A DNA stretch of 64,000 nucleotides from a virus. Positions 471 to 33,055 of the stretch are shown here, one piece after another. The stretch lies in IMG/VR virus record IMGVR_UViG_3300021963_000074, positions 1-64,000 of that record; one strand, 5' to 3'. The notes beneath the pieces are model-generated. The model was not told the origin of the DNA. It did no database searches and worked only from the letters and a program-made list of their open reading frames with translations. Both the position numbers and the translations under genes were made by a program. Positions within the stretch are counted from its first letter, which is position 1. The number at the start of each line of letters is the position of its first letter.

Positions 471-3188
471 TTAACCGAATGAGAATAAGTCATCAAATGT
501 TGATTTAACATCTGTACTATCTCGTATATCCCAACCCAAGACACCTAGTAAATTTTCAATCTTTTCGTCTACCAGTGTCTTTTCCATTTCTTCATCGTCA
601 AATGGTAGTTCAGTAAACCATTGTGGTAATCGTAGTTCATCTGTAGGGTATGCTATGCTTGTGAAACCTAATGGATTTGATTTCAATTTACAAACAATCA
701 CTTTCATACCATCAACAATTTTCATGCTATAATTATCTGAATTAACTTTGCGTAGATAATTGTAGTTCAATGAACCTCTAACGTGACCGGGCATATTAGC
801 ACGACCAGTGGTACTCTTAGCTTCTAGATCACCGTACATTGTTAGTTTGTTAACACCTTTTGGTGAGCCTTTAGTCCAGCTATCCTGTTTAGTTAGTACT
901 CGTTTAAATTCTTTGATTTTATCAACTACTTCTGCACGACCTTTACCTTGTTGGATAACCATTTCTAGTACACCCATTAAGAATTCTTGTATATATTTAG
1001 GAGTATCTGCTCGTTTCAAATCAAGACCCATAGCCTTAACATCACCTGCTTTGCCATCTTTATCTTTACGCTTGCCCTCTTTATCAAAGATATTGATAGC
1101 ATAGCGTTTCTTTGTAATAAAGATAGCACGGTCACCAATCAGTTCACGACCAGCTTTAATGATTGCACCATTCTTGCGAGGTGCATGAAATGCTTTCTCC
1201 ATGAATGCTGGAAAACTCTCATTCGCTTGGTCAGCAATATTATCATATAATGAAATGCACAATTCTTTGTCCCATTGTAATTCACCATTCTGTATTTGTG
1301 TTTGTAACACAGGGTAAGCACTGAAATAACAACTGTCAGTATCACCATACACAATTGCTTGTCCTTCGTGATTATACTCACCTGTAACACATTCATTAAT
1401 TTGGCTCATCATATGACGGACAATCTGACGGCCGCTTAGTGTAACACTTTGACCGATACGCTTGTCATAGAAACGACAATGCTCGTTCAACAGTGCGCCA
1501 TATGCAGAGTTAAGCAAAATCTTGCGTACCAGTTGTCGCTTATCCCAATACTCCCTGTCAGCTTGGGTCGTTGCTTCTTTTAGTTTCTTCTGCATTTCCT
1601 TACGATCACTATACCAACGAGTTAGCAATCCAGGTACAACACCCTCTTTCTCGTATGTAAAGATTGTACCGTTTGCACTAAGCATCCAGGGCTTATGACT
1701 ATCAAAGATTAGTTTCCATATCTCTGCCGCACTCATTTCCTCACTACGACCATCTTCATAATCAAGTGTGAGCATAGTACCCCGTTCTTGATTCATAATT
1801 GCAGTGTACTCTAATGCGCCAAATAGATTTTCCCACAGAATACTGCCAGTAACTGCATCATCGCCCTCTTTGTGGCGTTTCTTTTCTGATGCAAGTCTTT
1901 GACCTTTATCCGTCATGTATTTGTCAGTTAGTGTTTGTCTGACTTGACCAATGATGGTTTCGCCTGCCATGTTGATGGCTCTAATAACCGAGGGGTAGAG
2001 CGAGTTGATATCAACTGCTCCGACGTATTCGTGCATACCTTTTTTGGGCGTAGCAACATAGGCACCTGCCGCTTGTTGGACATCTTCTGCATTTTCTTTC
2101 CTTCGTTTTTTATCCGGGACAACTAAACCTCGTTCATGCGCTTCATTAAAAATTGCCATTTCAATCATAGCTACAGAACCCATTACTGTTGGCAGTAATA
2201 CTGTATTCTCATGTGCCAACTGATTAGCTAATTCTAAGAATTTTAATTTGTTATGAATCTTAACCAGCAACATAGTATCTTGACGGTTATACTCTAAGAA
2301 CTTTTCCCAGTCCTTGTTGTACAATTGGTCAAGTGTACCTTCGTATTGTGTTTTGTTTTCACCAACTTCCATTTCACCAATAGCATCTAGTTTATAGCTA
2401 TGGCGACTTTCATAGTTGTATTTCTTGTAAAGTTGAAGATAGTCCATATGAATACGACCAATCAAGTCGTAAGTCATTTCTGACTTACCGAATCGTTCAT
2501 ACTCTCTTGGCTTGGGTAGTTGACCCATTAAACAGAATTTGCGGGTATCGTCTTTACTCATTACACGGGTGACACGATTAACCATATATGGTATATCATA
2601 TCCTTCTGAATTCCAACCAGTTAACACATCAGCATCTTCAATCAATTCAAAGAATGTATCAAACATTTCCTTTTCACTTTTGAAAAGCAATGTGTTCTCA
2701 AACTTACGTGTGATTTCCCATGCTGTTTCATCACTCATGTGTTTGGGTGCAATACACAATGTTATCAATGTGTCTTGCCAATCCAAATACATACTGATTG
2801 CAGTTACTGGATTGAATGGATCGCTAGTAGGGCTGAAACCCTTCTCTGGATCAAAGTCTACTTCAATGTCAAAGAAACAAGTATGAAGTTTAGGTGCATC
2901 AACACCCAAATAGTTTTCGCTTAGACAACGAAATACTGGATTGATATCACTTTCAAAAAGTTCTTTCCCACTAAGTATTCTACGTTCTTTTTCAAATTCT
3001 TGACGCTTGCGTGTACTGAATCTAGATACAGGATTACCATAGATACTACGATGCTTACCTTTTGGATCAGGATAATAGAGAACATAGTTGGCAGGATATT
3101 CAGTGTAATGACGCTTACCGTCAGTACCTCGTTCAACTACATAAATTCTATCTTCATCCCGACTGTGTATCGCATCCACATAGGACAT
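471..3188 (-). CDS. gp43: Family B DNA polymerase (T4 gp43-like)
   Basis: Exonuclease FFDIEVD and GWNSEGYD; polymerase motifs DINSLYPS, KILLNSAYG, YGDTDS, KKRY; no intein apparent. Confidence 0.97.
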   Translation of the reverse strand: MSYVDAIHSRDEDRIYVVERGTDGKRHYTEYPANYVLYYPDPKGKHRSIYGNPVSRFSTRKRQEFEKERRILSGKELFESDINPVFRCLSENYLGVDAPKLHTCFFDIEVDFDPEKGFSPTSDPFNPVTAISMYLDWQDTLITLCIAPKHMSDETAWEITRKFENTLLFKSEKEMFDTFFELIEDADVLTGWNSEGYDIPYMVNRVTRVMSKDDTRKFCLMGQLPKPREYERFGKSEMTYDLIGRIHMDYLQLYKKYNYESRHSYKLDAIGEMEVGENKTQYEGTLDQLYNKDWEKFLEYNRQDTMLLVKIHNKLKFLELANQLAHENTVLLPTVMGSVAMIEMAIFNEAHERGLVVPDKKRRKENAEDVQQAAGAYVATPKKGMHEYVGAVDINSLYPSVIRAINMAGETIIGQVRQTLTDKYMTDKGQRLASEKKRHKEGDDAVTGSILWENLFGALEYTAIMNQERGTMLTLDYEDGRSEEMSAAEIWKLIFDSHKPWMLSANGTIFTYEKEGVVPGLLTRWYSDRKEMQKKLKEATTQADREYWDKRQLVRKILLNSAYGALLNEHCRFYDKRIGQSVTLSGRQIVRHMMSQINECVTGEYNHEGQAIVYGDTDSCYFSAYPVLQTQIQNGELQWDKELCISLYDNIADQANESFPAFMEKAFHAPRKNGAIIKAGRELIGDRAIFITKKRYAINIFDKEGKRKDKDGKAGDVKAMGLDLKRADTPKYIQEFLMGVLEMVIQQGKGRAEVVDKIKEFKRVLTKQDSWTKGSPKGVNKLTMYGDLEAKSTTGRANMPGHVRGSLNYNYLRKVNSDNYSMKIVDGMKVIVCKLKSNPLGFTSIAYPTDELRLPQWFTELPFDDEEMEKTLVDEKIENLLGVLGWDIRDSTDVKSTFDDLFSFG

Positions 3189-3799
3189 TATTGTTTACTC
3201 CTACAATTATCACCGTGCCAACGAGTATGATTTGGTTTATCAATCGTCTTGTCACAATGAATACATGTCATTTTTATATTGGTTGGATTATTCATTAAAA
3301 ATTGGTTTCTTCTACTTTCTGTTTGTTTTGTTAACCCTTCAGGAGTATAATTTAATTTTTTACCTCTTCTGTTGAGATCCGCTTGTGTTCTTTTCTCGGT
3401 CCAATTTTTAGTTTTACCTCTAGTCGAATCACCGACTTTTTTAGCAGTAATGAGATTTTTCATTGGGTTTTTATCACCCTTCAAATCTTCTCTCGGACCT
3501 CCCTTAAGAAAATGATGCGTACCGTTTTCTATTCTTTTTTTAGCGGCCATGCTATTAAGTTTTGATATTTCTTCTGTGGTTTTATTCAACCTTAAACCTA
3601 TAAGTACACACGCATTCCAGTCTTCTTGCAAAGAATGGATATTATAGTGTTCTTGGATAGTAACCAATTGTAAATTAGAAATTTCATTGTTATTATGATT
3701 TCCATCAATATGATGTACTTCATAAGACCTACCGTCTAGGTCTTTTGGTATAGGACCGTTAACGGATTCCCAGACTAATCTGTGTTTTCTTGAACTCAT
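3188..3799 (-). CDS. HNH homing endonuclease with C-terminal zinc finger
   Basis: YEVHHIDGNHNNNEISNL...EHYNIH; C-terminal CIHC...HTRWHGDNC. Start moved to ATG 3799 (MSSRKH, SD GGAG) because a late promoter lies at 3877-3884. Confidence 0.85.
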   Translation of the reverse strand: MSSRKHRLVWESVNGPIPKDLDGRSYEVHHIDGNHNNNEISNLQLVTIQEHYNIHSLQEDWNACVLIGLRLNKTTEEISKLNSMAAKKRIENGTHHFLKGGPREDLKGDKNPMKNLITAKKVGDSTRGKTKNWTEKRTQADLNRRGKKLNYTPEGLTKQTESRRNQFLMNNPTNIKMTCIHCDKTIDKPNHTRWHGDNCRSKQ

Positions 3800-3806
3800 T
3801 TTGATA

Positions 3807-3872
3807 CTCCGAATAGTAATAGATGGGCTATCTGTGATTCGGCACAGAAAGGTAATTACTCCTGTTCGCCCT
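3807..3872 (-). promoter_or_regulatory. Structured 5' leader (putative double pseudoknot) of the HNH gene
   Basis: Five complementary pairings (see finding), one of which covers the SD. Confidence 0.55.
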
Positions 3873-3897
3873 ATATTATTTATCAGAGGTAACACCA

Positions 3898-4161
3898 TTA
3901 TATTGTTTTACCCACTGTTTCCAAAATAGTGTTGAGTTGTTCGTGTTCTTGATTTGATTGTGTTAGGCTCGCTTTATGGGCCACTCTGATTGCTTTCTTA
4001 AGTACACTAGGTTTAACTTCTAGTTCTTCTGCAATTGCTTTGATAGTGTCTGTAAGACCACCATTTAATGTGTCAATTTCGTGCATTACTGCCATACCCT
4101 CATTGACAAGTTGGGTAAGTTTAATCTTCTGATCGCCGTTGAATGTTTTCACATCACTCAT
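3898..4161 (-). CDS. Small helical dsDNA-binding protein (T4 DsbA/GapR-like)
   Basis: 87 aa helical protein with IKAIAEELEVKPSVLKKAIRVAHK pattern; SD AAGGAG. Confidence 0.55.
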   Translation of the reverse strand: MSDVKTFNGDQKIKLTQLVNEGMAVMHEIDTLNGGLTDTIKAIAEELEVKPSVLKKAIRVAHKASLTQSNQEHEQLNTILETVGKTI

Positions 4162-4235: not shown

Positions 4236-5525
4236 TTATCTTGCGTAACTTACTTGTCCTTGTCTGCTAATAGAAATATGTTCTGCTACCCACTCAGCAA
4301 CACCATGGTCTTCATCATTTCTACTACGCCACCCATAATTTTTCCAATAAGGATTAAAATATTTTTTTATATGATGAGCCATTATCAGACCTAAATTGTA
4401 ATAAGTTACAGGTTCATCCGACTCATTTGTATCATTCATTATATCAATAGCAATTTCTTTCATCTGTGATGGTGTTACTGCTAATGCACTTTTTATATCA
4501 ACCAAAAATCTTCTAGCATCATCATTATAATCAAAGTAGTCATTAATTTTAGGATTATCATGTATGACTTCCCAGATTTCGTCATCATCCATTTCATCAT
4601 TAATGATACCCATTTTTTTAGCGGTGTCTAATTGCCAGTCTTTAAAATAACTGTCATTGTCTTCCCAATCACTTGCCATTTGATAAACATGATCCATTGT
4701 TAAATCACGAATTTGTAAACCCATTGATGCTAATAAAGCATCATCTGTAAAAGGAACCAACTCTTTAACTTCAGGTTCTTTTGTAATGAAGTATTTGTAA
4801 AGGTCAGGGAATCTTTCAGTTAACAATTCGTATAAATTAATTGGGTCATCCTGTTCATCCATGAATTGGTCTGAACCAAAATGTAATTGATATTTTTCAC
4901 CATCATAGCTAGGTTGGGTAGGTAACAAAATATACAATGGTCTTTCTTTACTACTGTATCTACTAAAATAATTTGTTCCTTTTGTGGCTGCTGTACACCA
5001 ACGAGTACCTTGACCATAATAACAAGCAGCTTGTTCATTTTCTGGTATAACAACTCTTACATCATTATCTCTATAAACTTCTACTGCTTGCCCTTTATCT
5101 TTTAGTGGCTCTGCTGGAGGCTCATAGTTATTCATTATTGTGTAGAACTGAGGATAGGTCAACCGCATGATATCCTTAGCATCAGCACGAAAATCATTAC
5201 GCTTTTTATATTTGTCATAATCTGCTAACAATGGACCTAACACATGTGCATCTTCTAAACGTTTGATGTTTTGTTTAGCATACTCACGTGCTAACCATGG
5301 AACATATATTTTATTTTTAGTTGGATCTGCTTCTTCTAAGTTACGTAATACTTCTGCAAGTATTGCTTCTGTATTTGGTTGACCATCAGGAAATACAAAT
5401 GTTGTATTATAGAATTGATACTGTTGTTTGTCTCCGCCTGTTGCAAAGGCATTTATCAACTGCGGACCTACCATCTGTGCAGTTTTGGCTCTATTGTATT
5501 CAATTAAAAACTCACAGGCTCTCAT
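4236..5525 (-). CDS. Putative internal virion protein with PcfJ-like (YGxGTxWC) domain
   Basis: N-terminus MRACEFLIE; central AACYYGQGTRWCTAA...PLYIL...KYQLHF...FMD motif typical of large-phage proteins. Confidence 0.5.
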   Translation of the reverse strand: MRACEFLIEYNRAKTAQMVGPQLINAFATGGDKQQYQFYNTTFVFPDGQPNTEAILAEVLRNLEEADPTKNKIYVPWLAREYAKQNIKRLEDAHVLGPLLADYDKYKKRNDFRADAKDIMRLTYPQFYTIMNNYEPPAEPLKDKGQAVEVYRDNDVRVVIPENEQAACYYGQGTRWCTAATKGTNYFSRYSSKERPLYILLPTQPSYDGEKYQLHFGSDQFMDEQDDPINLYELLTERFPDLYKYFITKEPEVKELVPFTDDALLASMGLQIRDLTMDHVYQMASDWEDNDSYFKDWQLDTAKKMGIINDEMDDDEIWEVIHDNPKINDYFDYNDDARRFLVDIKSALAVTPSQMKEIAIDIMNDTNESDEPVTYYNLGLIMAHHIKKYFNPYWKNYGWRSRNDEDHGVAEWVAEHISISRQGQVSYAR

Positions 5526-5526
5526 T

Positions 5527-5970
5527 TTATTTTTCAGGTACTAGGTGCTGTGCATCACCCTTTTCATTCCATTTATGCCACATTTGTTTACCCATTTGAC
5601 TTTGATAAGGACTTGGTTTAATGTCATTCCCTAACATTTTAGCATAAGCATACATTGTACTTGCTACCCCTTTACTACGATATTTTTCTTCAACTTGTGT
5701 CTCGTCACTTTGAAGCCATTGTTGATTATCTTCTTCAGTATGAAGTACAAATACGGCCTGGCCTATATACTGTTTACCTACTGGTTGTCTTGGGTCGTAT
5801 GCACTTATTACTAATCCAGGTATATCACCTAATGCTAAGTAATGTTCTGCTTTATAGATGTATGGACCTATACGAACCTCATGCTCCCAACTTGGTCCAG
5901 AACTAGTATCATTAGGATCACCTAATGTTTCTGGATTAACCACCTCTGATACAAATTCTTTTGCTCTCAT
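5527..5970 (-). CDS. GNAT-family acetyltransferase with CTS-like leader
   Basis: MRAKEFVSE leader; GNAT motif A VEEKYRSKGVASTMY followed by QSQMGKQMW. Confidence 0.7.
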   Translation of the reverse strand: MRAKEFVSEVVNPETLGDPNDTSSGPSWEHEVRIGPYIYKAEHYLALGDIPGLVISAYDPRQPVGKQYIGQAVFVLHTEEDNQQWLQSDETQVEEKYRSKGVASTMYAYAKMLGNDIKPSPYQSQMGKQMWHKWNEKGDAQHLVPEK

Positions 5971-8483
5971 TGAAATATATCTGAATGTTCTTTACCGTAT
6001 ATTTTTATATACTTGCCTGCCATCATATCTGCTAGTGCTTCAATAGGACTTCCAGGATAGCTATCACCGTGCTTAATCATACCAAGTTGGTCTTGTCTAT
6101 GATGTACTAACTCATGGAATATAGTACGGAATATATCAACTAAATTTCTATTCTCAATATATACCCAAATTCTATCTCCAGTGTGCATTCCAGTGCGATG
6201 ACCTTTTTGTGCCTGTTCTGTATCTCTACTCAATGTAAATTTAGGATATGGCTTTTCTATATTCAATGTTATCATCGACCATTTAATAAAATTTTTAATT
6301 TTTTGCACATCATCTTTTTGTTCAATAGATTCACGTAAATGACTATTCGTGCCTGCTGCCCAACCCTTAAAGTCATATGCATCATCTCTTGGTAGTAGAA
6401 CAGACTGGCCCGTTTTATTGGTGAGTAAGACGTTATCAACTTCCTCATCATGATCAATATTCCAACCACGTTGTTGTAGTTGTGCCGTGATAAATTGTAA
6501 TTGATTTCTAGTACCAGAACCATATCCTTTTGGATCTAGTACGGCTGCTGAACCTCCATCTTCCATGTCAGCCCAGAACCAATCGTTAGCTAATTTCAAT
6601 ACATCTTTGGGTAACTTCTTCCAAGTAATACCGGCTGGTTTTTTAGCAATTGGCACAACGTTCTGACTAGTTGTGCGTTGTGTTACTTGTTTTTTCTTTT
6701 GTAATGGACTTACGTTAGGTTTAGTAGGTTGTTGCTTGTTGGGGAATTGCAACACTTCACCTTCTTTCATTCTCTCTTTTTTTTTAGCAATAGCAATAGC
6801 AGCTTGCATTGCAGGATTCTTTGCCTCAGCAATTTTTTGTTCAGCAATCATTGTTAATTGTTGTAATTCTTCAATAGATTCACAGTTCCATCTACGCAAT
6901 GCTTTGTTGATTGGGCTATCTGGATCTCGCTTAGTCTTGACACTAGCATTATGTTTCTTCATTCCACCCATTCTAGCACAGAAACTTTTACGACGGCTGG
7001 CAGCTTTACTGCCCTTCTTTAATTTACTTGGCTTAGTTGTTACAGCAGTCTTTAACTTACTACCTGGATTCTCTCTACGATATGCTTTAACTGCTTTGCC
7101 ACTCATGCCATCAGTCTTGTCACTCTTGTTGACTTTCTGCCAATCTTCCGCCACACCTTGCGTTTGTGTTGCTTTTGTAAATTGATTGGGTCTTACCATA
7201 TCTAATCTACGAGGATCATTCATTATAGAAGGATCTTTCATCAGTTCGCTTTTAGGATTAACCCAAAACCCAACCATTGTTCCTTTTAAAGGCAATGCAC
7301 CTTTTGGAACAACTACTGCTTCTTCAAATTCTCCACCTGCTTTTGCAGTAGGTTCGGCGTTTTTTGCCTTGGCCTTTGCAATATTTCTTGCCATTGGATC
7401 TGTGTTCTGTGATCTTGCCACTCCATTTTTTGTAAGATATGGATTGAATGCTAGTCCTTTGATATTTGTACTTTGACTTGTACCTAATGTTTTGAAATTA
7501 CTTTCAACTGCATTACGATCTAGTACTAATATTGCATCTCTACCAATGCTTACCATTTGTGTTTGTGCGTTAACACCATTAGCATAACCCCAATCTCTGG
7601 TTACACTTACTGTAGGCAGTTTGGTTTGCGCTGAGGTTGCTGCCTGTGGTGCTCTTGCTGATCGAATACTACCCGACGATAACATTCCTTTAAGACCACT
7701 CGCACTTGTAGCGTGATATAGATAGTTACCGCCTACTGCCTCATCTAAACCTTCCGCCACACCTTGCTCAACGCTTTCACTTTTGTATGTGGCCCCAGTG
7801 CATACCCAAGCAGGGCCTGTGTATCCTTGAGGGAATGCCTTCAAATGTTGAATAGTTCTGTGCCAACCTTCAATCAAATCATACCCGTTTGATAATTTAG
7901 CAACAATAATAGGTTCAGCACTTACGCCTTTTTGCTGAATCATTTGTGATTGTTGTGCATGTCTTTCGGCATCTCTTGGAACTTGAAAAGGATTAGAACT
8001 ACCACCTTCACGACTAGCAAGCATACGCTGAGTCTTTGGTGTAAAGATATCAAATGTTATAGGCAGTTTAGTCAGTGTCCATTTACAATTACCAAAGTCT
8101 TGTTTATTTCTTTTGAGAAAATCATCTAACTCTGCTTGGTCACGGATGCCCTTGGCTTGTGGATATAAGAAGTCTTTCAATACATAATCAGGCCAAGTAG
8201 GAAACTGTTGCTTCACAAAAGCAAATAAACTATTTCTAGCTTCTGACAAATCTTCCGCCACACCTTCTTCACCTAGCTTTTCTTTGTATTTTTTTATCCA
8301 GGTGTCTGGCGTATGACCGTATTTGCTCACAAATAAGTCATGTAATTTTTTGCCGGTGATCTTGTAACGCTTACTGATGCGTTGCATTAAATTGTCAATA
8401 GTACTGTAGTCTATTTTGCGTAGGCTAGGTAATTTCTTTTTTAATTCATCGACTGCGGATTCGTAAAGTAGTTCTGCTCTCAT
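5967..8483 (-). CDS. Modular polyprotein: ParB-like + ART-like + RRKSFCARM domain + zincin, joined by GVAE/x-x-E linkers
   Basis: PIIV..YDLIEGWHR (ParB/Srx-like); YLYHAT..VSVTR..EFEE (ART-like); RRKSFCARM..ALRRWNC (DUF6321-like); IFHELVH..IEALA (HExxH zincin); three GVAE repeats. Confidence 0.7.
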   Translation of the reverse strand: MRAELLYESAVDELKKKLPSLRKIDYSTIDNLMQRISKRYKITGKKLHDLFVSKYGHTPDTWIKKYKEKLGEEGVAEDLSEARNSLFAFVKQQFPTWPDYVLKDFLYPQAKGIRDQAELDDFLKRNKQDFGNCKWTLTKLPITFDIFTPKTQRMLASREGGSSNPFQVPRDAERHAQQSQMIQQKGVSAEPIIVAKLSNGYDLIEGWHRTIQHLKAFPQGYTGPAWVCTGATYKSESVEQGVAEGLDEAVGGNYLYHATSASGLKGMLSSGSIRSARAPQAATSAQTKLPTVSVTRDWGYANGVNAQTQMVSIGRDAILVLDRNAVESNFKTLGTSQSTNIKGLAFNPYLTKNGVARSQNTDPMARNIAKAKAKNAEPTAKAGGEFEEAVVVPKGALPLKGTMVGFWVNPKSELMKDPSIMNDPRRLDMVRPNQFTKATQTQGVAEDWQKVNKSDKTDGMSGKAVKAYRRENPGSKLKTAVTTKPSKLKKGSKAASRRKSFCARMGGMKKHNASVKTKRDPDSPINKALRRWNCESIEELQQLTMIAEQKIAEAKNPAMQAAIAIAKKKERMKEGEVLQFPNKQQPTKPNVSPLQKKKQVTQRTTSQNVVPIAKKPAGITWKKLPKDVLKLANDWFWADMEDGGSAAVLDPKGYGSGTRNQLQFITAQLQQRGWNIDHDEEVDNVLLTNKTGQSVLLPRDDAYDFKGWAAGTNSHLRESIEQKDDVQKIKNFIKWSMITLNIEKPYPKFTLSRDTEQAQKGHRTGMHTGDRIWVYIENRNLVDIFRTIFHELVHHRQDQLGMIKHGDSYPGSPIEALADMMAGKYIKIYGKEHSDIFQ
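7147..7159 (-). repeat. 13-bp junction repeat AAGGTGTGGCGGA, copy 1
   Basis: + strand TCCGCCACACCTT; encodes QGVAE. Confidence 0.95.
7753..7765 (-). repeat. 13-bp junction repeat, copy 2
   Basis: + strand TCCGCCACACCTT; encodes QGVAE. Confidence 0.95.
8254..8266 (-). repeat. 13-bp junction repeat, copy 3
   Basis: + strand TCCGCCACACCTT; encodes EGVAE. Confidence 0.95.
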
Positions 8484-8489
8484 AGTATA

Positions 8490-8498
8490 GTATTTATG
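8490..8498 (-). promoter_or_regulatory. T4-type late promoter
   Basis: CATAAATAC a few nt upstream of ATG 8483. Confidence 0.7.
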
Positions 8499-8570
8499 CT
8501 CACTTTGATGAATTGGGTAGCGAATCCTATCATGCAGCCAGCAGCCGGCTACTCGGTCCTAAGGCGAGTT
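8498..8570. ncRNA. Candidate structured RNA (three adjacent hairpins)
   Basis: GC-rich intergenic island with stems at 8508-8533, 8536-8550 and 8551-8569. Confidence 0.35.
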
Positions 8571-8642
8571 CTATACAGGGCTATATGGGTTCAAAGGTCT
8601 GTCCCATTCCCCTTCTTGTTCTGGATATACTGGATATTGCAT
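8571..8642 (-). CDS. Possible 23-aa peptide MQYPVYPEQEGEWDRPLNPYSPV
   Basis: ATG 3 nt after the upstream stop; below the ORF-track size cutoff. Confidence 0.35.
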   Translation of the reverse strand: MQYPVYPEQEGEWDRPLNPYSPV

Positions 8643-8645
8643 ATG

Positions 8646-9470
8646 TTAATCCCACTCTAAAAATCTTATTTCAAAGGTATTAATGTCAGTTGGTCTAATT
8701 AATATAGGACGTGTTTTATTGACGCTATTAGTCAATAACCAATCCTTATTGTTGCTATCTCTATACTTTAATACAGGATTGTATCTTAACTTCATAATCT
8801 GATCATACCCGTGTAATATATCTCCTGCTACCCCTAAAAACCAATCATTTTGATCTTTTCCTGAAGTTCTATCGTATTTAGGTGTATAACGAGAAAATTT
8901 ACCTGTTAATTTATCTGTGTATGCTTCATATCCGTGTAGTTTTAAATCGGTAACTAATTCTGCGGTATATTTCAACTTTTTACCACTACCGTGTGCCAAT
9001 ACTATTCTATATGTAGTGTATTCTGTTTCATCTGGATACATGATATCCAATAACATTGTATAAAAGAAATTTATTTTTTCAGGTTCATAACTATGATCAG
9101 TTTGGTCTACTGATTCAATCCCTGAATTTATAATACCACTATGTGACTTGGGTCTAAAGAATGTACAGTTATCATCTCCTTGCCAAGCCGCGGCAAACTT
9201 CTTAGTAATATTTTCATCCCCGTTATTACAACAAACCCATAATACTGAGAAATTACCTATATTCTTACCATGAACAAAAGGTATATTGTTATTTGGATTT
9301 TGCCCTATTGGAATATTTACATTTTCCTGCAATACATCAAATGTAACATTGTATTTTGATGTAGGGATTTTTTTATCAAATTTGATATAAACAAAATTGT
9401 CTTGTTCTCGTTCATCCCGCAAACCTGTCATTTGCAGTATTTTATTAGCAAAGTTTCTAAATCCACCCAT
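8646..9470 (-). CDS. Hypothetical protein
   Basis: 274-aa ORF in operon orientation with SD GGGG; no recognised motif. Confidence 0.6.
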   Translation of the reverse strand: MGGFRNFANKILQMTGLRDEREQDNFVYIKFDKKIPTSKYNVTFDVLQENVNIPIGQNPNNNIPFVHGKNIGNFSVLWVCCNNGDENITKKFAAAWQGDDNCTFFRPKSHSGIINSGIESVDQTDHSYEPEKINFFYTMLLDIMYPDETEYTTYRIVLAHGSGKKLKYTAELVTDLKLHGYEAYTDKLTGKFSRYTPKYDRTSGKDQNDWFLGVAGDILHGYDQIMKLRYNPVLKYRDSNNKDWLLTNSVNKTRPILIRPTDINTFEIRFLEWD

Positions 9471-9501
9471 ATATACCCCATTAATAACTTACTTAGTCTA
9501 A

Positions 9502-9924
9502 TTACAATGGTACTTTACATTTATTTAAAACTTTGCTGATTAGATTGAATTTCTCTGCTAATCCTACATAGAATATATCCGGTGGGCGCTCAGTATATGC
9601 TACTTGGTCATATGCTAGACAACCCATTTCTTTATAGTAATTGTTACTGGGCCAGCGATTTTTTGCTAATTCTAACCCATTGATTAATAGGCACTCATCT
9701 GCTACACTGCTTAGAACTTTCTTTCGTTGTTCAATGGGTAGGCGTGTACCTTCCATAATTTTGATACATACTGGTTCACGATTTAAGTTTGGATTATCTA
9801 AGTATCGTGCGAACAAATGAACCACGTAAGCCTCTACATTATGTTCTAAATTTACACAAAGTTTACTTTCGGCTTCAAGTATAACTTCATAGCTGTGTTT
9901 TACATAAGTTAGATAGTGGTTCAT
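9502..9924 (-). CDS. Hypothetical helical protein
   Basis: 140-aa ORF with SD GAGGA; no confident family. Confidence 0.6.
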   Translation of the reverse strand: MNHYLTYVKHSYEVILEAESKLCVNLEHNVEAYVVHLFARYLDNPNLNREPVCIKIMEGTRLPIEQRKKVLSSVADECLLINGLELAKNRWPSNNYYKEMGCLAYDQVAYTERPPDIFYVGLAEKFNLISKVLNKCKVPL

Positions 9925-9930
9925 TATTCC

Positions 9931-10800
9931 TCACATAATATATATTTTACCTACACTGGCGCGTAGCACAGAGTCAAACAAATTAGATAATACATTTGAT
10001 AATTCTAAGCTAGCTTCTCCGCGTAATAATTCATCATTTTGTAATTCAGGATTCAATCTCATAAACTTAGTTGTTCTACCCCATGCTTTTCTACCATAGT
10101 CTAATGAAACTGGTAGTGGATTTAACGTAATTCTACCGTCTTTTAGATATTGTGCAAATAATTCATACATAAATTCATATGGTCTTTTTATCTGTCCGGT
10201 GCGACTACTACGCTGTGTGCCTATAGCATTGAAAAAAGCACCGTATTCTTGTTGTAGGTTCCAATTAACAGCAGTATTAGTATACCTATGCTCTGCTGAT
10301 TTATTATAATAATCTTTTAGAATCTTATTGATATAATTAAAGAAATAACTCTCTGCCTTATTCCATGGATCAGCAATATTACCTCTTGATGTGCCATAAT
10401 TATTACGATTTGATGCAGTAATTGCATGACCAAATCTATGTGCCATTACCCACGGCGTCATCATAACTGCTCTGTCACCGGTGTTACCTATAAACACAAT
10501 AGTAATTGCATTTTCGTGCCTGTTAACAATTAAATCTGCTTGCTCTTTGCTAAAGATATTTTTAACTTCATTTGGATTTATTGCTCCGTATTCTTTAAAC
10601 TTTCGTAGTCCTGGACTATTATTAAAAAACAATCTAAAATTATAAGGTGTGTTCTCTAAAAATTTAATTGCTTTTGTTTGAGTAACAGGATGTGTAATCA
10701 GTTTACGGTCTACTGGATTAAACTGCCCTTTCTTTTCAAAATCACCCAATGGTACATAATCTTGTAATGGGGCTTCTGTGATGAACTCTGTTGCTCTCAT
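9931..10800 (-). CDS. Putative internal virion protein with degenerate zincin-like HRFGH motif
   Basis: MRATEFITE leader; WVMAHRFGHAI and downstream YEFMYELFAQY. Confidence 0.5.
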   Translation of the reverse strand: MRATEFITEAPLQDYVPLGDFEKKGQFNPVDRKLITHPVTQTKAIKFLENTPYNFRLFFNNSPGLRKFKEYGAINPNEVKNIFSKEQADLIVNRHENAITIVFIGNTGDRAVMMTPWVMAHRFGHAITASNRNNYGTSRGNIADPWNKAESYFFNYINKILKDYYNKSAEHRYTNTAVNWNLQQEYGAFFNAIGTQRSSRTGQIKRPYEFMYELFAQYLKDGRITLNPLPVSLDYGRKAWGRTTKFMRLNPELQNDELLRGEASLELSNVLSNLFDSVLRASVGKIYIM

Positions 10801-11426
10801 AATATTCTATAATAATCTATAAAGTTTTCGTGTCTATCTTTAAGTCCACGCATTGCTGGATTAATATATTTGGTAACAGTAGCAGTATCTTTGAAATTAG
10901 TTATATTAGGTCTAACTCTAGTTTTCCAATACCATATAGCAATCTTGGCAGCAATGTCAGGTCTGGCTGCATATTCAGGATGATTGATTAAATCTATATT
11001 CAATGCTTGGCTAGCCATTCTATAATTATCACGACCAGTCAACTGTACAAACCCTCTGCCATGATATTTTTCACCATCTCCTGGACGAGTGTTTCCTAAT
11101 ATTCTTGCTGTCTTGGGTGCATATTGAACACCGTATCTTTTTTCAAAATAGCCTTTACCCATTGGCTTTTCTTTTAGTCGTTCAAAGTTCCATGATTCGT
11201 GTTTCATCTGAGCCAAGAATTGAGCCAATTCTGGTCCTTTTAATCCTGAGCCTATTGCAACTTTTTGCAAAGTGATTTCGTTCTGTGGGTTGTTACTTAA
11301 TACATTGAAATCTGTGGGCATTTTTAAGCCTAGTGAGGCTTGTGCTCCTGTGGCTGCTCCGGCACCCATTGCACCAAGAAACCCTCTGCGAGTTAAATCT
11401 TCTGCAATGATTTCTGATGCTCTCAT
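10797..11426 (-). CDS. Glycoside hydrolase family 19 (muramidase) with CTS-like leader and twin-arginine motif
   Basis: FLAQMKHES, YHGRGFVQLTGRDNY, VTKYIN; N-terminus MRASEIIAE-DLTRRGFLG. Confidence 0.85.
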   Translation of the reverse strand: MRASEIIAEDLTRRGFLGAMGAGAATGAQASLGLKMPTDFNVLSNNPQNEITLQKVAIGSGLKGPELAQFLAQMKHESWNFERLKEKPMGKGYFEKRYGVQYAPKTARILGNTRPGDGEKYHGRGFVQLTGRDNYRMASQALNIDLINHPEYAARPDIAAKIAIWYWKTRVRPNITNFKDTATVTKYINPAMRGLKDRHENFIDYYRIL

Positions 11427-11866
11427 TATGCTCGTTCTTTTTTAAGAACACTGCGAATCATCCACTGATGTTTTTCGTGTGCATCTAATCTTTCTGCGAT
11501 AAAATTAGCAATGCCTTGTTTGTTTTCTTCTGTAGCTGATTGAAAACACATATTTAGAAAATCAATCATCTTAGCGTTGTCCGTTAGCAATTCAGTAAAC
11601 ATCAATTCAGCACGTGGAATCTTAGTTTGATCTGGAATAATACTAAGTTCAGCATAGCGTGTTAAACTACCTGGGGTATAGCTATCTAAGGTACGAATAT
11701 ATTCTGCAACTCTATCTACTGAACCGTATACCTCTGTATAGAAATTGTCAAAGAAACTATGATATTGTGGGAAGTCGGCACCTTCAACATTCCAATGAAA
11801 GTTTTGTGCTTTGATAGCAAGTGCATTTGTACTTGCTAATAGTATTTTTAAGTTATCAGTTAACAT
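11426..11866 (-). CDS. dps: Dps / ferritin-like DNA starvation protection protein
   Basis: NFHWNVEGADFPQYHSFF, DRVAE ferroxidase motif, HEKHQWM. Confidence 0.92.
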   Translation of the reverse strand: MLTDNLKILLASTNALAIKAQNFHWNVEGADFPQYHSFFDNFYTEVYGSVDRVAEYIRTLDSYTPGSLTRYAELSIIPDQTKIPRAELMFTELLTDNAKMIDFLNMCFQSATEENKQGIANFIAERLDAHEKHQWMIRSVLKKERA

Positions 11867-11929
11867 ATTATTTCCCCGGTGGGGTTCCTTTGTTCTTTAA
11901 GTAAAAATCAATTACGCCTCTGTCCATAT

Positions 11930-13381
11930 TTAGTGCTTCAATAATAATGTACTTAATACACCAGTATCATTTGCAGTCAAGTCTGGTTCACCGGGAGCAA
12001 TAATAACATTCCATTTCATATTAGGAATCTTTTGACCTTTAGTAGCCCACTCGTCATAACTTAATATTGAATTAGCACTTAATCCATACTCGGTAGCTAA
12101 ACGTTGTTTTAATTCAGGTAACTTTTCAGGTATGATTTGCCATTGTCCTTCACTACCCTTATCTAAATTACCCTTAGCATCTTTAACTAATAAGTCTTGG
12201 AATAGTCCAGTTGGTACAATACGACTATTTTTAGTTGTATCTAATTTAGGATCAGCTGCCTTAACTTGTTTCTCTTGGCTTGTATGAGCACCCTCACTCC
12301 AATTGATAATGAAGTTATCGGGTTTCTGTGCTAGTGCGGCACCAGCCATCTTTGTATAAGCGTAGAATTTAACATCAGGTAAGCTGTTTGCTAACTTGAA
12401 TGCTAAGTCTAAGTATTCTGGACTAAAGAAGTCGCCAGCGTCATGCCAACGAATAGTTACATTATAACCGCCCTTTTTACCTAATTTTTCTTCTTTAGCA
12501 ATTTCATTTGCTAGTTGCTCAAAGAAACCATCTGGGTTGTTCAATAGATATGTAATGATGCGTCCGTCACTTAACCAAGCCGCTTCAAACTGAATCTTGC
12601 CGCCCTTCATAGCAAAGCAATCTATTTTACAGCTGCCAGCGCCAGGACATGTATTAACAACAATTAAATTGTTTGTGTTCTCGTCTAATGCAATACCAAC
12701 TAATGCGGCAAAACCAATATTGAAGAACTGTTCTAAGTCTCCATTACTGTGCTTCATCTTTTCATTTTGCTTTAGTAATTTCTTTGGACGTACTGCTAAT
12801 GCTTGTTTAACATCTTCTTCACGGTATCTGTTACCTGCAGGATCATAGTACTTGACTACACTACTACGGTGAATATAAGGCATACGATATTTGTCTTGTT
12901 TTGTTTTTCCAGACACATATTTTTCTTTGCCTTTTTTATCTAACTTTACTTGACCTGTCTTTTTATCAATGTCAGGAGTGCCAGCAATTCGTGTCATATA
13001 ATCTTGAAATTCTTGTCCACCTATATCACGCTGGTCGATAGGAAGTTTAGTTGCTTCAGGTATCATACCTTTACCGGCAAGTTTTTCTAGTTCTAAATAT
13101 TGTTGTTTTAACTTTTCCCAAGTTTCTGAGTCGCGCCTTTTATTGGCATCTAACATTTTACTATGTAATACATCAGCTTTTGCCAAATAATCATTCATTT
13201 GTATCCTGTTAATTCTACTACTAATTGGCTCGGTAGTATTTTCATCAACTTCTTCATTACCATCTACAAAATCATCGGCTTCAGGATCAGAAACAAACTG
13301 GTCAACTGACATAATTTTAATGCCACTAGGGGCTCCAGGTAATTTGGGTTCTGCACCTTCGTATAATTCTGTTATTTTCAT
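11930..13381 (-). CDS. GP88-family (radical-SAM-like) protein with CTS-like leader
   Basis: TCPGAGSCKIDCFA, IRWHDAGDFF and FYAYTK motifs; MKITELYE leader. Confidence 0.7.
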   Translation of the reverse strand: MKITELYEGAEPKLPGAPSGIKIMSVDQFVSDPEADDFVDGNEEVDENTTEPISSRINRIQMNDYLAKADVLHSKMLDANKRRDSETWEKLKQQYLELEKLAGKGMIPEATKLPIDQRDIGGQEFQDYMTRIAGTPDIDKKTGQVKLDKKGKEKYVSGKTKQDKYRMPYIHRSSVVKYYDPAGNRYREEDVKQALAVRPKKLLKQNEKMKHSNGDLEQFFNIGFAALVGIALDENTNNLIVVNTCPGAGSCKIDCFAMKGGKIQFEAAWLSDGRIITYLLNNPDGFFEQLANEIAKEEKLGKKGGYNVTIRWHDAGDFFSPEYLDLAFKLANSLPDVKFYAYTKMAGAALAQKPDNFIINWSEGAHTSQEKQVKAADPKLDTTKNSRIVPTGLFQDLLVKDAKGNLDKGSEGQWQIIPEKLPELKQRLATEYGLSANSILSYDEWATKGQKIPNMKWNVIIAPGEPDLTANDTGVLSTLLLKH

Positions 13382-13885
13382 TTAATTCTCCAAATCTTCA
13401 TGGGACCATGATATGTAACTTTTCCCGTTTGTGTCCCCTGCACGTACTACAAACACGCCACCATTATCATAACTACCTTCATCTTCACCGATTTCCCAGC
13501 CCATACTTGCTAGTGTGCGTTCAGCACGAATCATGTCTTGTTCAGTACCTAACCACCATTGTTTAGCTAATTGGCGTAAAATTTCTTCACCATCTTGTCC
13601 ACCATTATCACCGTCACCAGTATCAGCAAATTCTTTTAGTCCCTTAAGGTGCTTCTTTATATCAACGATAGGTGTGAATAAGTGATTAAGAATCTGTCTT
13701 TTCTTTTGCTCTGTTTGAAAACTTTCATTTTTCATTATAGGGCATTTCCATATGCCTTCAGTTTTAGTTGGATAAAAAGGAAAATGCTGTTGAACTTTCA
13801 ATGCACTATTTTTATCTTGGTTATCAACTTGGTAATATAAGTTTTTACCAAACGCACCTTCAACTAAAACATCAGTTATTTTCAC
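13382..13885 (-). CDS. Two-module putative internal virion protein
   Basis: MKITDVLVE leader; internal LKE site; C-terminal module resembles a module of 5967..8483. Confidence 0.55.
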   Translation of the reverse strand: MKITDVLVEGAFGKNLYYQVDNQDKNSALKVQQHFPFYPTKTEGIWKCPIMKNESFQTEQKKRQILNHLFTPIVDIKKHLKGLKEFADTGDGDNGGQDGEEILRQLAKQWWLGTEQDMIRAERTLASMGWEIGEDEGSYDNGGVFVVRAGDTNGKSYISWSHEDLEN

Positions 13886-15876
13886 TTTGCTGACTTTCTT
13901 AATGCATCAGCAGTCGGTGCACCTTTACTACCTGGCTTACGCATGTGTTCTCCGCTACCATGTTTAATACGTTCACGTTTAGCATGTATGTTAGCCCATA
14001 AGCCTTTGCTTTCCTCCGCCACACCTTTTGGTTTTAATTTTCTAACTGTCCAAGACCCATCGTTGTTGATTCGGTCTAATTCATACTTGTGGTATTTTGC
14101 ATCGCCTTGAGGATCTAAGTCTTCGCCAGCTATATCACGCACATACTCATCGTATAGTGCTGGATCTGAATTGTAAATTGCTGGATCAAGTATTACAACA
14201 TGGTCTGCATAATAAATCTTATTGCCTTTAATTGTTGGTCCGGTAGTAGAACCTTCCGCCACACCTTTAGTTAATCCTGGTACTTCATTTTTGAGCACAC
14301 TCATGGCTCGCTGTAGACTTGAATAAGTGTCAATGTGCTTACCGTTGGCGTGAATCATGAAGTCTGTGGGACTGGACTGAATGATTTCATATTTGCCACC
14401 ATCAGCACCGGTGCCCGAAAACACAACTTGTCCGTCCGTGCCTTCCGCCACACCTTGCTGACCACGTTGTGCTTGAAATGCTTGTGCTTTTTCATCGCTA
14501 CTTTGTTTTGATCCTTTGAACATTAACATTGCCGCAAATAACATTAGTGTTACAGGAATCAATCCTAGAATACTACCAGATGCTACTGCGCCTCCTACTT
14601 CGCCTGCGGCTGCGTGTGCCAATACACCATCAATCATTCCCATAGCATTCATCCACATTGTAGATAAAATGCTGCCGCCACCTACTGCCAATCCACCAAG
14701 TTGTTTCGTCATACCCGATTCGGCGACTGTGGCAGACTGACCTGCTGCCAATTGTTCCATCTTTTGTTTAACTTCTTTACCAGACTTGCTGGTCTTCAGA
14801 ATTTCAATCAATTGTGGCTTGTATTGTTGTGCCATTTGATAATATTTGCCAATGCCAGGAATCTTCTTGACTAATGCTGTAATAGTTTCAATAGCACCTT
14901 CATCTAACTGGTAGCCCTCCGCCACACCTTGCTCTTTAACTTTACCTTTGTTGTGTGCTTTCCATGCAGTAGCATAAGCAATACTTTTCTCTTTAGGACT
15001 TAGTTTACCATCTTTGCTATAACTCTTTTTGATGTGTTTTACCATGCGTTCTGCTTTAGCTCCGGGAGGTGCAACTTCTGCCATACCCTGTCCGTTATCC
15101 AAACGCTTAATCAAATCTAATAATTTTTCGTAGCGCATACGATTATTATTCCACGTAGACCAAGAACCATAGTGGTCTGCATATTGGTCATGACTGTTCT
15201 GAGCCAACCATGCTTTTAATGCGTTTGCTTCCTGAGTGTATTCATCTCTCTTTGAACCAGTATTTTCATCTATCGTATAGACATTGCCACGTTCATGCTG
15301 ACTAATCATATAATCCATGACAGTAACCATAATAGATTTGGCTACTGCAATTTTCTCTTGTACCCATTCTGGTAAATTTTCATCTGCTTGTAATTCGTTG
15401 CCCAAATGACCTGATACTCTAACAATAGTATGTAGATTATTTTGCACCATGTCTACTTCATCATTGTATTCACCGCCGCCGTCGAATTCTTCTTTTGCCA
15501 TGATATCACGGTCTTCTGGTCTATTACCTATGTCACGGGCTTTTGATTTGTTAAAGAATTCTTTTCTTTTTGATTTTGCTAGTAATTGTTCTTCGCTGAT
15601 ATCATCTTCGCTTATTGCTTCTTCTTTAATACCAGCTTTTCTGCTGTTTGGAAACTTTTCGCTAGAACTGATGCCTTGAAACATACTACCTTTACCCCTA
15701 CGTTGCATACTTCCCATGGGCTGTGCTACTGTAGCAATAGAACCTGAAGTAGTTTCTTCAATCTTTTCATCTTCTAACACGTTTGGATCACGACCAAATT
15801 TAGGTGCTTGTTGACTCTGTAGTCCTGAAGGACTGCTAACTGTCGTTGTCATTTCAAAAAGAGAGGATATTTTCAT
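13882..15876 (-). CDS. Modular polyprotein with four GVAE repeats (plus one GMAE)
   Basis: MKISSLFE leader; modules LPEWVQEKI, IAYATAWK, a hydrophobic membrane module, two small unknown modules and a basic GLWANIHAKR..KPGSKGAPT tail. Confidence 0.7.
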   Translation of the reverse strand: MKISSLFEMTTTVSSPSGLQSQQAPKFGRDPNVLEDEKIEETTSGSIATVAQPMGSMQRRGKGSMFQGISSSEKFPNSRKAGIKEEAISEDDISEEQLLAKSKRKEFFNKSKARDIGNRPEDRDIMAKEEFDGGGEYNDEVDMVQNNLHTIVRVSGHLGNELQADENLPEWVQEKIAVAKSIMVTVMDYMISQHERGNVYTIDENTGSKRDEYTQEANALKAWLAQNSHDQYADHYGSWSTWNNNRMRYEKLLDLIKRLDNGQGMAEVAPPGAKAERMVKHIKKSYSKDGKLSPKEKSIAYATAWKAHNKGKVKEQGVAEGYQLDEGAIETITALVKKIPGIGKYYQMAQQYKPQLIEILKTSKSGKEVKQKMEQLAAGQSATVAESGMTKQLGGLAVGGGSILSTMWMNAMGMIDGVLAHAAAGEVGGAVASGSILGLIPVTLMLFAAMLMFKGSKQSSDEKAQAFQAQRGQQGVAEGTDGQVVFSGTGADGGKYEIIQSSPTDFMIHANGKHIDTYSSLQRAMSVLKNEVPGLTKGVAEGSTTGPTIKGNKIYYADHVVILDPAIYNSDPALYDEYVRDIAGEDLDPQGDAKYHKYELDRINNDGSWTVRKLKPKGVAEESKGLWANIHAKRERIKHGSGEHMRKPGSKGAPTADALRKSAK
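14015..14027 (-). repeat. 13-bp junction repeat, copy 4
   Basis: + strand TCCGCCACACCTT; encodes KGVAE. Confidence 0.95.
14255..14267 (-). repeat. 13-bp junction repeat, copy 5
   Basis: + strand TCCGCCACACCTT; encodes KGVAE. Confidence 0.95.
14444..14456 (-). repeat. 13-bp junction repeat, copy 6
   Basis: + strand TCCGCCACACCTT; encodes QGVAE. Confidence 0.95.
14918..14930 (-). repeat. 13-bp junction repeat, copy 7
   Basis: + strand TCCGCCACACCTT; encodes QGVAE. Confidence 0.95.
15077..15089 (-). repeat. Degenerate junction repeat (10/13)
   Basis: + strand TCTGCCATACCCT; encodes QGMAE at a module boundary. Confidence 0.6.
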
Positions 15877-15897: not shown

Positions 15898-15906
15898 GTA
15901 TTTATC
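15898..15906 (-). promoter_or_regulatory. T4-type late promoter heading the cargo cluster
   Basis: GATAAATAC upstream of ATG 15876. Confidence 0.7.
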
Positions 15907-15921
15907 GTTTTTGGATAGTTG

Positions 15922-16605
15922 TCAAGGTAAATTAAAAAGTATCATTTCTGAATCATCAGGGCTAGTTATTTCTAACATGTTTTCTTGCTCAAACATATAT
16001 CCATCACCCTCAACTGATTCATTCCCATTGATAGTAGCTTTACCTGTAATTATATACAAGTAATATTTACAAGTGGGGTCTAGATTTTCAGTATACGATT
16101 CTGTAAAAATACCAGCTTTTACTATAGCATCACTTTGTATAGTAACTGGACTACCTTTTTGACTAGCAATATTTGCAAACTTGTTTAATTTATCTTCTCT
16201 AGTAAACTGATATCCATCATATTTAGGGGGTATTCCCATTTTATTGGGGCGCAACCATATCTGCAAATAACGAATAGGTTTATCTGAATTATTACCCTCA
16301 ATATGCCAAATACCAGACCCAGCTGTCATATGTTGAACTGAGCCTGTCGGTACTTGTAGTATATTGCGTAAGTTGTCGTTATGATAGCATGGACCATTAA
16401 TTACATAGCCCAGTATCTCCATATCCATGTGTTGATGTACGGGTACAAAATGTCTTGGTTGAACTCTATCATCATTGATTACTTCTAATATAGAGTAATT
16501 GATATAGTTTGTATCCCAGTAACTGTTATTGCTAAATGAACGATATGTTTCAAACCATCCAACATTCATATGTTTTCTGGTATCTTTTGGTCTATGTTTA
16601 ATCAT
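15922..16605 (-). CDS. Pirin-family cupin protein (YhhW-like)
   Basis: VINDDRV, HQHMDMEILGYV, MTAGSGIWHIE, LQIWLRP. Confidence 0.9.
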   Translation of the reverse strand: MIKHRPKDTRKHMNVGWFETYRSFSNNSYWDTNYINYSILEVINDDRVQPRHFVPVHQHMDMEILGYVINGPCYHNDNLRNILQVPTGSVQHMTAGSGIWHIEGNNSDKPIRYLQIWLRPNKMGIPPKYDGYQFTREDKLNKFANIASQKGSPVTIQSDAIVKAGIFTESYTENLDPTCKYYLYIITGKATINGNESVEGDGYMFEQENMLEITSPDDSEMILFNLP

Positions 16606-32888: not shown

Positions 32889-33055
32889 AGTTGTATTTAT
32901 CACATAATGCTATTTGTGTAAGCATTTAAATTTTTAAGATTAGCCTAATATTTATCAAAAAACTTTCAGTAAAGACTATCATACTATGACGCTGGCCATT
33001 GCCTTTAAATAACATTGAGTTTTATGAGAACTCATGCTCTACAAAGGAGAATATT

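Follow-up and report, generated by a model that had tools for sequence, protein, structure and literature searches.

A candidate capsid-targeting leader on unrelated proteins of an uncultured jumbo phage

Why would eight genes of one phage gene cluster, whose products are otherwise unrelated, begin with nearly the same eight or nine residues? The question is raised by positions 4236-15876 of a window (the whole stretch of DNA analyzed here, 64,000 nucleotides) that forms the first 64 kb of a single 90,742-base contig, IMG/VR virus record IMGVR_UViG_3300021963_000074 (G+C content about 37%). A preliminary description, made from the letters alone, likened the shared start to the capsid-targeting sequence (CTS) of phage T4 internal proteins and proposed an arsenal of injected enzymes addressed to the capsid by a portable leader. 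From sequence comparison and analogy, we consider it likely that a T4-type capsid-targeting leader heads a variable set of cargo proteins that would be packaged in the head and released by protease, some of them being polyproteins of the polyvalent type.

The shared leader and its distribution

The eight N-termini given in the preliminary description were all verified on the minus strand (Table 1). They follow the consensus M-[RK]-[AI]-x-[ED]-[FILV]-[LIV]-x-E over 8-9 residues, and every one carries leucine, isoleucine or valine at P3 and glutamate at P1. The identical start described for five of the eight genes is likewise present, as ATGAGAGC. A regular expression built from the eight sequences after inspection, and thus circular within the window, matches 9 of the 100 open reading frames (ORFs) of the contig: 8 of 11 within the cluster and 1 of 89 outside it. 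At internal methionines, used as control positions, it matches 1 of 565. Once the first 12 residues are cut off, the best pairwise blastp match among the eight bodies has E = 0.023; the bodies are unrelated, as had been stated.

The preliminary description also counted MKSLRQYLTE, at 49363, as a leader. We rejected this gene (48767-49363), which probably does not belong to the set. It lies in the neck/tail module, and its counterpart in the cultured jumbo phage PA5oct, gp202 (200 aa, in the same module, paired with it by N-terminal likeness and position), starts MKSFRDYYDAS, without a terminal glutamate. The one match outside the cluster lies beyond the window, where a ninth leader-like start, MKLKEVIVEG, opens a 345-aa protein of no family (contig 74114-75151, minus strand) whose gene adjoins a DUF6267 gene and the replicative helicase.

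The T4 CTS is MKTYQEFIAE, in agreement with the preliminary description (PMC8442874). According to PMC9026906, its residues 4 and 7 serve targeting and residues 8 and 10 processing, and the protease gp21 cleaves after L/I-x-E. The CTS is thought to allow T4-like phages to take up varied proteins (PMC9026906; PMC3012670), and Ip genes of T-even phages have been identified through it (PMC12373910). The present leader shares with the T4 internal proteins the core E-F-[IL]-x-E and an end that fits the hydrophobic-x-Glu rule of gp21. When the two are aligned on this core, F6, L7 and E9 correspond to T4 F7, I8 and E10; the counterpart of the free position 8 is T4 A9. The T4 sequence is 10 residues long, compared with the 8-9 residues found here.

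Related loci were drawn from viral contigs of up to 524 kb, using the GP88-domain protein of the cluster as one query (220 stretches, of which 80 loci were kept) and its 289-aa protein as another (9 loci). Across these 89 loci the leader is found on 167 of 1484 unique ORFs, a fraction that is biased because the loci were fetched with leader-bearing queries. Stripped of the leader, the bodies form 23 clusters, two of which are singletons that by eye fit the leader poorly (MRIAVLEIPTL... and MKFELVEIGT...). As to the cargo diversity that the preliminary description proposed to survey in related genomes, the leader, as recognized by the regular expression, thus occurs on about 20 unrelated bodies, and on this sequence evidence it is portable between them. 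A complete 367-kb relative (G001) provides an unbiased figure. There the expression matches 11 of 408 ORFs (eight convincing, three doubtful), three further leader-like starts are missed by it, and the leader genes are located at four places in the genome. By Pfam, leader-bearing bodies in relatives include ART-PolyVal (E 4.7e-14), GGACT/AIG2 (7e-15), GNAT (4e-10), LRV repeats, Amidoligase_2 and DUF6321, and 12 of the 25 leader proteins in that scan match no family.

Conservation of the leader is best followed in the family of the 429-aa protein, which has 1068 homologues and carries the strict leader on 85 of 120 listed. Across 40 aligned members, identity to the window protein is 73% over residues 1-10 versus 43% elsewhere; M1, R2, A3, E5, F6, L7, E9 and Y10 are retained, with positions 4 and 8 unconstrained. 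Because residues 1-10 are conserved and residues 1-7 are disordered in the AlphaFold2 model, the leader has the character of a conserved linear motif.

The same nucleotides could in principle be an expression device, in which initial codons rich in A, together with a shared start context, would be spread by recombination and ensure strong late translation, the peptide itself playing no role. The run common to five genes fits such a device, as does codon 2 of the leaders in the 89 related loci, where AGA supplies 85% of arginine and AAA 94% of lysine codons versus background values of 27% and 63%. Therefore, the likeness at the DNA level may partly serve translation, and the bias suggests added selection on translation initiation. 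However, the regions upstream of the leader genes differ and several of these genes are translationally coupled. Positions 5, 6, 7 and 9 are kept as residues with background synonymous usage, including that of the codons for E, F and T, whereas variation is free at positions 4 and 8. Moreover, the leader is still present where body identity has fallen to 33-40%. An expression device devoid of any peptide role is most improbable.

Another explanation is that the leader directs proteins elsewhere than to the capsid, either toward envelope export or to a chaperone or unfoldase such as the ClpA/B-like AAA+ protein and DnaJ of this phage. The GH19 protein lends itself to this idea. DLTRRGFLGAMGAGAATGAQA, at 11337-11399 (minus strand) directly after its leader, is by eye a twin-arginine export-like motif (TRRGFLG...AQA) that is kept in relative L027 and points to export rather than packaging. 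Tat signals have the pattern S/T-R-R-x-F-L-K, a hydrophobic stretch and A-x-A. The phage also carries its own two-ring ClpA/B-type AAA+ gene (27951-30233, 760 aa), which adjoins the DnaJ gene (30255-31049, 264 aa), both on the minus strand. However, the twin-arginine motif is seen by eye in only one of the eight proteins, and the leader is unlike Sec or Tat signals in that it is short, acidic and not hydrophobic. To our knowledge, no Clp tag resembles it. Targeting elsewhere also leaves unexplained both the match to the T4 CTS and the interchange of leader and internal joints described below, and we judge it distinctly unlikely.

Head genes and late-type motifs

The contig encodes a family-B DNA polymerase, tail sheath, tail tube, neck and head-closure proteins, as well as clamp loader, helicase and primase. 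Its tail sheath shares 46-47% identity with the sheaths of the jumbo phages Atu_ph07, PA5oct and Phosso, and no match to the cluster came up by megablast in 50,697 phage records. Therefore, the contig is part of the genome of an uncultured jumbo myovirus in the T4 superfamily; CheckV places its completeness at 25%.

Head genes of the T4 type are found in relatives. The genome of G001 encodes matches to Peptidase_S77 (E 3e-29) and Gp23 (E 2e-99), and its head module is ordered portal, small protein, acidic protein, protease, scaffold-like protein, capsid protein. In the capsid protein, which like the scaffold was read in this genome only, the stretch ...KSLLAE/SSAG forms an L-A-E propeptide-type site (the slash marking the cut), at what we take to be the position where T4 gp23 is cut. 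A T4-type prohead protease is also present in four of five further large relatives, and thus in five of six when G001 is included; the one without it is 49% complete.

Two proteins of PA5oct annotated as detected by electrospray ionization tandem mass spectrometry (ESI-MS/MS) are relevant here. One is gp205, the homologue of the 429-aa protein, which starts MKLFEVFTLYE. The other is gp150, which is encoded next to the portal gene and starts MKINDIITE.

The preliminary description placed two late promoters in the cluster. Late-promoter-like motifs, GATAAATA and CATAAATA, are present at these positions, each one base off the TATAAATA of T4. The shorter NATAAATA occurs 30 times on the minus strand, and 20 of these occurrences sit 7-80 nt upstream of ORF starts, among them those of tail-tube, neck and fiber genes. 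That the cluster and the tail genes have this sequence in common supports putative co-regulation of the cluster with virion genes. A transcript begun at CATAAATA, so close to the ATG of the 838-aa gene, would have nearly no 5' leader and no obvious ribosome-binding site.

Polyproteins, internal joints and exchangeable modules

The 838-aa and 664-aa proteins together contain eight internal joints of the form G-V/M-A-E. All seven GVAE joints of these proteins are encoded by the same 11 bases, GGTGTGGCGGA, which are found nowhere else in the contig and include GTG (11.6% of valine codons in the contig) and GCG (5.2% of alanine codons). In relatives, 76 of 103 GVAE sites have the same bases, distant relatives included. 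The pattern G[VMIL]AE has a frequency of 0.97 per 1000 aa in leader proteins versus 0.19 in others. Joint variants in relatives (GVAE, GMAE, DMAE, SVAE, GLAE, GVTE, NFAE and ENFADG) retain a hydrophobic P3 and a glutamate P1, which suggests that the peptide, and not only the DNA, is under constraint.

A GVAE written in ordinary codons is also found in the 429-aa protein (4293-4304, minus strand), 18 residues before its C-terminus. Across 39 aligned homologues, each residue of the C-terminal consensus, G-x-A-E-W, is kept in roughly half to two-thirds. The site is a candidate for C-terminal processing of the kind known from T4 Alt.

Modules B and C of the 838-aa protein, used as a query, gave 246 database matches. 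Of the 120 listed, 86 contain B, 42 contain C and 8 contain both. In these listed matches the modules are often 95-99% identical while the neighboring modules differ, and each is bounded by joints or directly by the leader. In the 86 listed holders of module B, counted by row, the module follows the leader directly in 8 (for example, MRAQEFVIE followed by ARNSL) and a leader-plus-GVAE tandem in about 25, and the rest have it behind internal joints. Similarly, the last 43-aa module of the 664-aa protein (phrog_16028) stands directly behind the leader in relatives L077 and L082, and the 289-aa body is also found downstream of other modules in relatives. These arrangements indicate that leader and joint are interchangeable and that relatives exchange modules at the joints. 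Partner modules identified by Pfam include GNAT, Pol-beta nucleotidyltransferase, ParB_N, cytidine deaminase, sigma-70 region 4, NT5C, GH19 with LysM, and several DUFs.

Modules B and C were modeled jointly, with a mean predicted local distance difference test score (pLDDT) of 67. Module B matches sulfiredoxin (Srx) and ParB N-domains in Foldseek with a probability of 0.9-0.99 and E of 0.04-0.1, and its ParB/Srx fold aligns over 88 residues with Z 7.5 and a root-mean-square deviation of 3.3. Module C matches Tpt1/KptA and DarT with Z 7.0 and 6.6, in agreement with Atlas leads. We consider a ParB/sulfiredoxin-like fold for B and an ADP-ribosyltransferase (ART)-like fold for C probable, although the Z values are middling. 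Both folds had been named in the preliminary description, and the model and fold search support them. Neither module reaches a Pfam model, and Pfam scans of single modules to E = 1 return only DUF6321, GP88 and a weak GNAT.

The zincin of the preliminary description corresponds to the C-terminal HExxH region of the 838-aa protein. The HExxH motif and one Atlas lead, to IrrE/Peptidase_M78, speak for it, but its identity does not go beyond that lead. A domain of this kind could nevertheless be the processing enzyme itself. Leader and joints would then be recognized by a different protease than that of the prohead, acting in the cytoplasm, either of the cell that makes the proteins or of one just infected, and the proteins would not be head cargo. 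A zincin-like metallopeptidase (MPTase) of their own has indeed been proposed as the processor of polyvalent proteins (PMC5512222). In addition, some related polyproteins bear joints but no leader, and start instead with a cytidylyltransferase-like domain (MSTIVIMPGGFHPF...). However, the 664-aa protein has five joints and, by Pfam, no peptidase domain, and most module partners seen in relatives are also without one. The hydrophobic-x-Glu form of leader and joints is that of the T4-type protease rule (PMC9026906), and the capsid site of G001 has the same form. Processing by such another protease is unlikely.

Some properties of the modules are reminiscent of head-internal proteins with a structural role, such as an inner body or scaffold that organizes DNA. 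Several modules are small and very basic (isoelectric points, pI, of 10.0 and 10.7), the DUF6321-bearing part of the 838-aa protein has a net charge of +24, and T4 internal proteins are also basic. Giant phages of the phiKZ type have processed inner-body proteins (PMC9026906). However, conflict effectors would account better than a fixed structure for the enzyme-type folds (GH19, ParB/Srx-like, ART-like) and for how quickly modules turn over among close relatives, near-identical modules standing in differing contexts. We think it very unlikely that the leader proteins are structural components and not injected effectors.

Proposed delivery, cluster genes and comparison with known systems

The leader, its enrichment and portability, the joints and the protease in relatives are observed here, and the scheme that we favor, head-packaged cargo carrying a T4-type leader, builds on them as follows. 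Late in infection, the leader would attach its precursor to the prohead's scaffolding core. As the fit of the motif to the hydrophobic-x-Glu rule suggests, a T4-type prohead protease (Peptidase_S77) would cut after the terminal glutamate of the leader, and would also cut the internal G-V/M-A-E joints of both long proteins. By virtue of this joint cutting, one leader would carry in a string of modules that are freed as separate small proteins. The mature proteins would remain in the capsid with the DNA and exit with it at the next infection, a route modeled on T4 IPI-III and Alt and on polyvalent proteins. By the same analogy, the GH19 protein and the module with two hydrophobic helices might act on the envelope, and the ParB/Srx-like, ADP-ribosyltransferase-like, HExxH peptidase-like and possibly GNAT parts on DNA and proteins of the host or of rivals. 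Thus, the eight leader proteins probably enter the capsid, are trimmed there and reach the next host along with the DNA.

A further and more tentative proposal, which may well prove wrong, is that leader and G-V-A-E joint act together as a plug-and-play system by which injected effectors are loaded. Whatever module stood behind either of them would be taken into the prohead and freed by the head protease, with the joint also being a recombination seam for module exchange. Because the joint is fixed at the DNA level, rare codons included, it would double as such a seam between giant phages.

Several observations weigh against packaging in the head, in addition to the codon bias, the twin-arginine-like motif, the sampling bias and the leaderless polyproteins noted above. 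No portal, capsid, protease or terminase gene was found on the 25%-complete contig, and because protease, capsid and portal genes are missing from it, the link to the protease rests on relatives (60-91% identity). A degenerate 9-residue leader pattern, applied to DNA, gave three matches in PA5oct, only one of them detected by mass spectrometry, and none in Atu_ph07. The PA5oct mass spectrometry list is not strictly virion-specific, since DNA ligase, FtsH and ClpP are also in it, and propeptides are not mentioned in the searched passages of the PA5oct paper. Three of the genes in the cluster are leaderless. The strict leader is found on only 56 of the 120 listed homologues of modules B and C, many of which are fragments, and three DUF6321 homologues that were read (from two cyanophages and one pelagiphage) carry no leader. 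The injected arsenal proposed in the preliminary description is supported in part: in its favor are the portability and CTS form of the leader, the S77 and gp23 matches in relatives, the late-type motif, the confirmed GH19 and GP88 domains and the probable ParB and ART folds. The GNAT and zincin assignments stay leads only, and the gene at 49363 probably falls outside the set.

The individual genes of the cluster are collected in Table 1. The GP88 and GH19 assignments of the preliminary description are both above their Pfam cut-offs. The 483-aa protein matches GP88 (PF17338) with E 1.4e-23 (84.4 bits, cut-off 24.4), and the N-termini read in its relatives are MKITELHE, MNFKELYE and MKIRHLLE. 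The ferritin/Dps-like gene holds the same position after the GP88 gene in relative L006. The 209-aa protein matches Glyco_hydro_19 (PF00182) with E 3e-13 (50.6 bits, cut-off 25.5) and the endolysin family phrog_181 with E 9e-37; a second GH19 endolysin-like gene is located at 40952-41578. In contrast, GNAT stays only a lead for the 147-aa protein, which matches Acetyltransf_CG with E 0.17 and 12.5 bits, below the cut-off of 30, while its homologue in relative L027 scores 21.7 bits. This also weakens the proposed arsenal.

The 429-aa protein is conserved in this phage group, and its AlphaFold2 model has a pLDDT of 87.8. A Foldseek search of the model against the PDB gave a best E of 0.6 and no solved analogue, and a VIA-wide search gave a best Z of 5.3. 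Its structural matches are only viral predicted models, including a structural protein of PA5oct and weak PcfJ-like rows. Comparison of the 838-, 429- and 483-aa sequences with PDB chains yielded nothing meaningful.

Table 1. Features of the leader cluster (window coordinates)
Feature	Position	Strand	Details
Late-promoter-like motif GATAAATA	15898-15905	-	22 nt upstream of ATG of 664-aa gene
664-aa polyprotein	13882-15876	-	leader MKISSLFE at 15853-15876
664-aa joint, GMAE	15076-15087	-	
664-aa joints, GVAE	14917-14928, 14443-14454, 14254-14265, 14014-14025	-	
664-aa small basic module	14917-15075	-	pI 10.0
664-aa module with two hydrophobic helices	14443-14916	-	
664-aa small basic module	13885-14013	-	pI 10.7
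167-aa protein, no known family	13382-13885	-	leader MKITDVLVE at 13859-13885; GTG start overlaps upstream stop
483-aa GP88-domain protein	11930-13381	-	leader MKITELYE at 13358-13381
146-aa ferritin/Dps-like protein	11426-11866	-	leaderless; Pfam Ferritin E 1.3e-22
209-aa GH19 peptidoglycan hydrolase or chitinase-like protein	10797-11426	-	leader MRASEIIAE at 11400-11426
289-aa protein, no known family	9931-10800	-	leader MRATEFITE at 10774-10800
140-aa protein, no family	9502-9924	-	leaderless
274-aa protein, no family	8646-9470	-	leaderless
Late-promoter-like motif CATAAATA	8490-8497	-	7 nt upstream of ATG of 838-aa gene
838-aa polyprotein	5967-8483	-	leader MRAELLYE at 8460-8483
838-aa joints, GVAE	8253-8264, 7752-7763, 7146-7157	-	
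838-aa module A	8253-8459	-	
838-aa module B	7752-8252	-	probable ParB/sulfiredoxin-like fold
838-aa module C	7146-7751	-	probable ADP-ribosyltransferase-like fold
838-aa DUF6321	6888-7121	-	
838-aa C-terminal HExxH region	~5970-6341	-	
147-aa protein, possibly GNAT-like	5527-5970	-	leader MRAKEFVSE at 5944-5970
429-aa conserved protein of phage group	4236-5525	-	leader MRACEFLIE at 5499-5525

The cluster is bordered by a pirin gene (15922-16605, minus strand). An HNH endonuclease gene (3188-3898, minus strand) lies between the DNA polymerase gene and a DsbA-like gene, and a PhoH gene is found at 32999-33838 (plus strand). NifU/IscU-like and IscA-like genes lie outside the window (contig 69687-70387, minus strand).

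Among known systems, the T4 internal proteins IPI, IPII, IPIII and Alt, with their CTS and gp21, likewise have a short N-terminal propeptide common to otherwise unrelated proteins. Their genes are clustered and variable between relatives, as here, and late, as promoter-like motifs suggest for the present genes; the S77 protease and a gp23-type capsid protein occur in relatives of the present phage. Unlike T4, however, this phage is a distant, uncultured jumbo phage. The T4 cargo consists of small basic inhibitors, whereas the proteins here are mostly large enzymes and multi-module polyproteins (838 aa, and 1299 aa in a relative) with internal joints that T4 internal proteins do not have.

For polyvalent proteins, injection along with the DNA and processing into units have been predicted (Iyer et al. 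2017, PMC5512222); MPTase, DdrB-type ParB and ART are their hub domains. The present proteins would resemble them in joining disparate effector domains on one chain (ParB/Srx-like, ART, zincin-type peptidase, lysozyme-type) and in a putative late-gene context, and it is a leader-bearing protein of a relative that matches the Pfam family ART-PolyVal. The present proteins differ in that the fixed G-V-A-E joint fits a prohead protease rather than an MPTase and that a T4-type leader heads the chain; furthermore, the ParB-like and ART-like modules of the window are below any Pfam model, and the zincin is only a lead. In the ejection and inner-body proteins of phiKZ, 201phi2-1 and SPN3US, many head proteins are described as being cut after glutamate by a gp21-related protease, with propeptides thought to target the prohead. 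However, those propeptides are mostly longer than 100 residues with the motif S/A/G-x-E, in contrast to the 8-9 residues and hydrophobic P3 found here.

By sequence and analogy, the cluster would thus represent a variant form of the T4 internal-protein system combined with cargo of the polyvalent-protein kind. A literature search, mostly at title and abstract level, found no description of T4-type leaders on polyprotein cargo in jumbo phages. If our interpretation is true, loading of the head by a short tag is not limited to T-even phages, and operates on a larger scale in a big group of uncultured aquatic jumbo phages, in which the 429-aa family alone has its 1068 homologues. Because the tag is on enzymes and module chains and not on small inhibitors as in T4, the leader would provide a sequence handle. 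With it, the cargo that phages deliver at the onset of infection, a set otherwise very hard to find, could be listed from genomes only. Packing of proteins into large capsids is another use to which the leader, as a natural tag, could be put. Finally, if the plug-and-play proposal is true, one short sequence would couple the speed at which the effector set evolves to its delivery.

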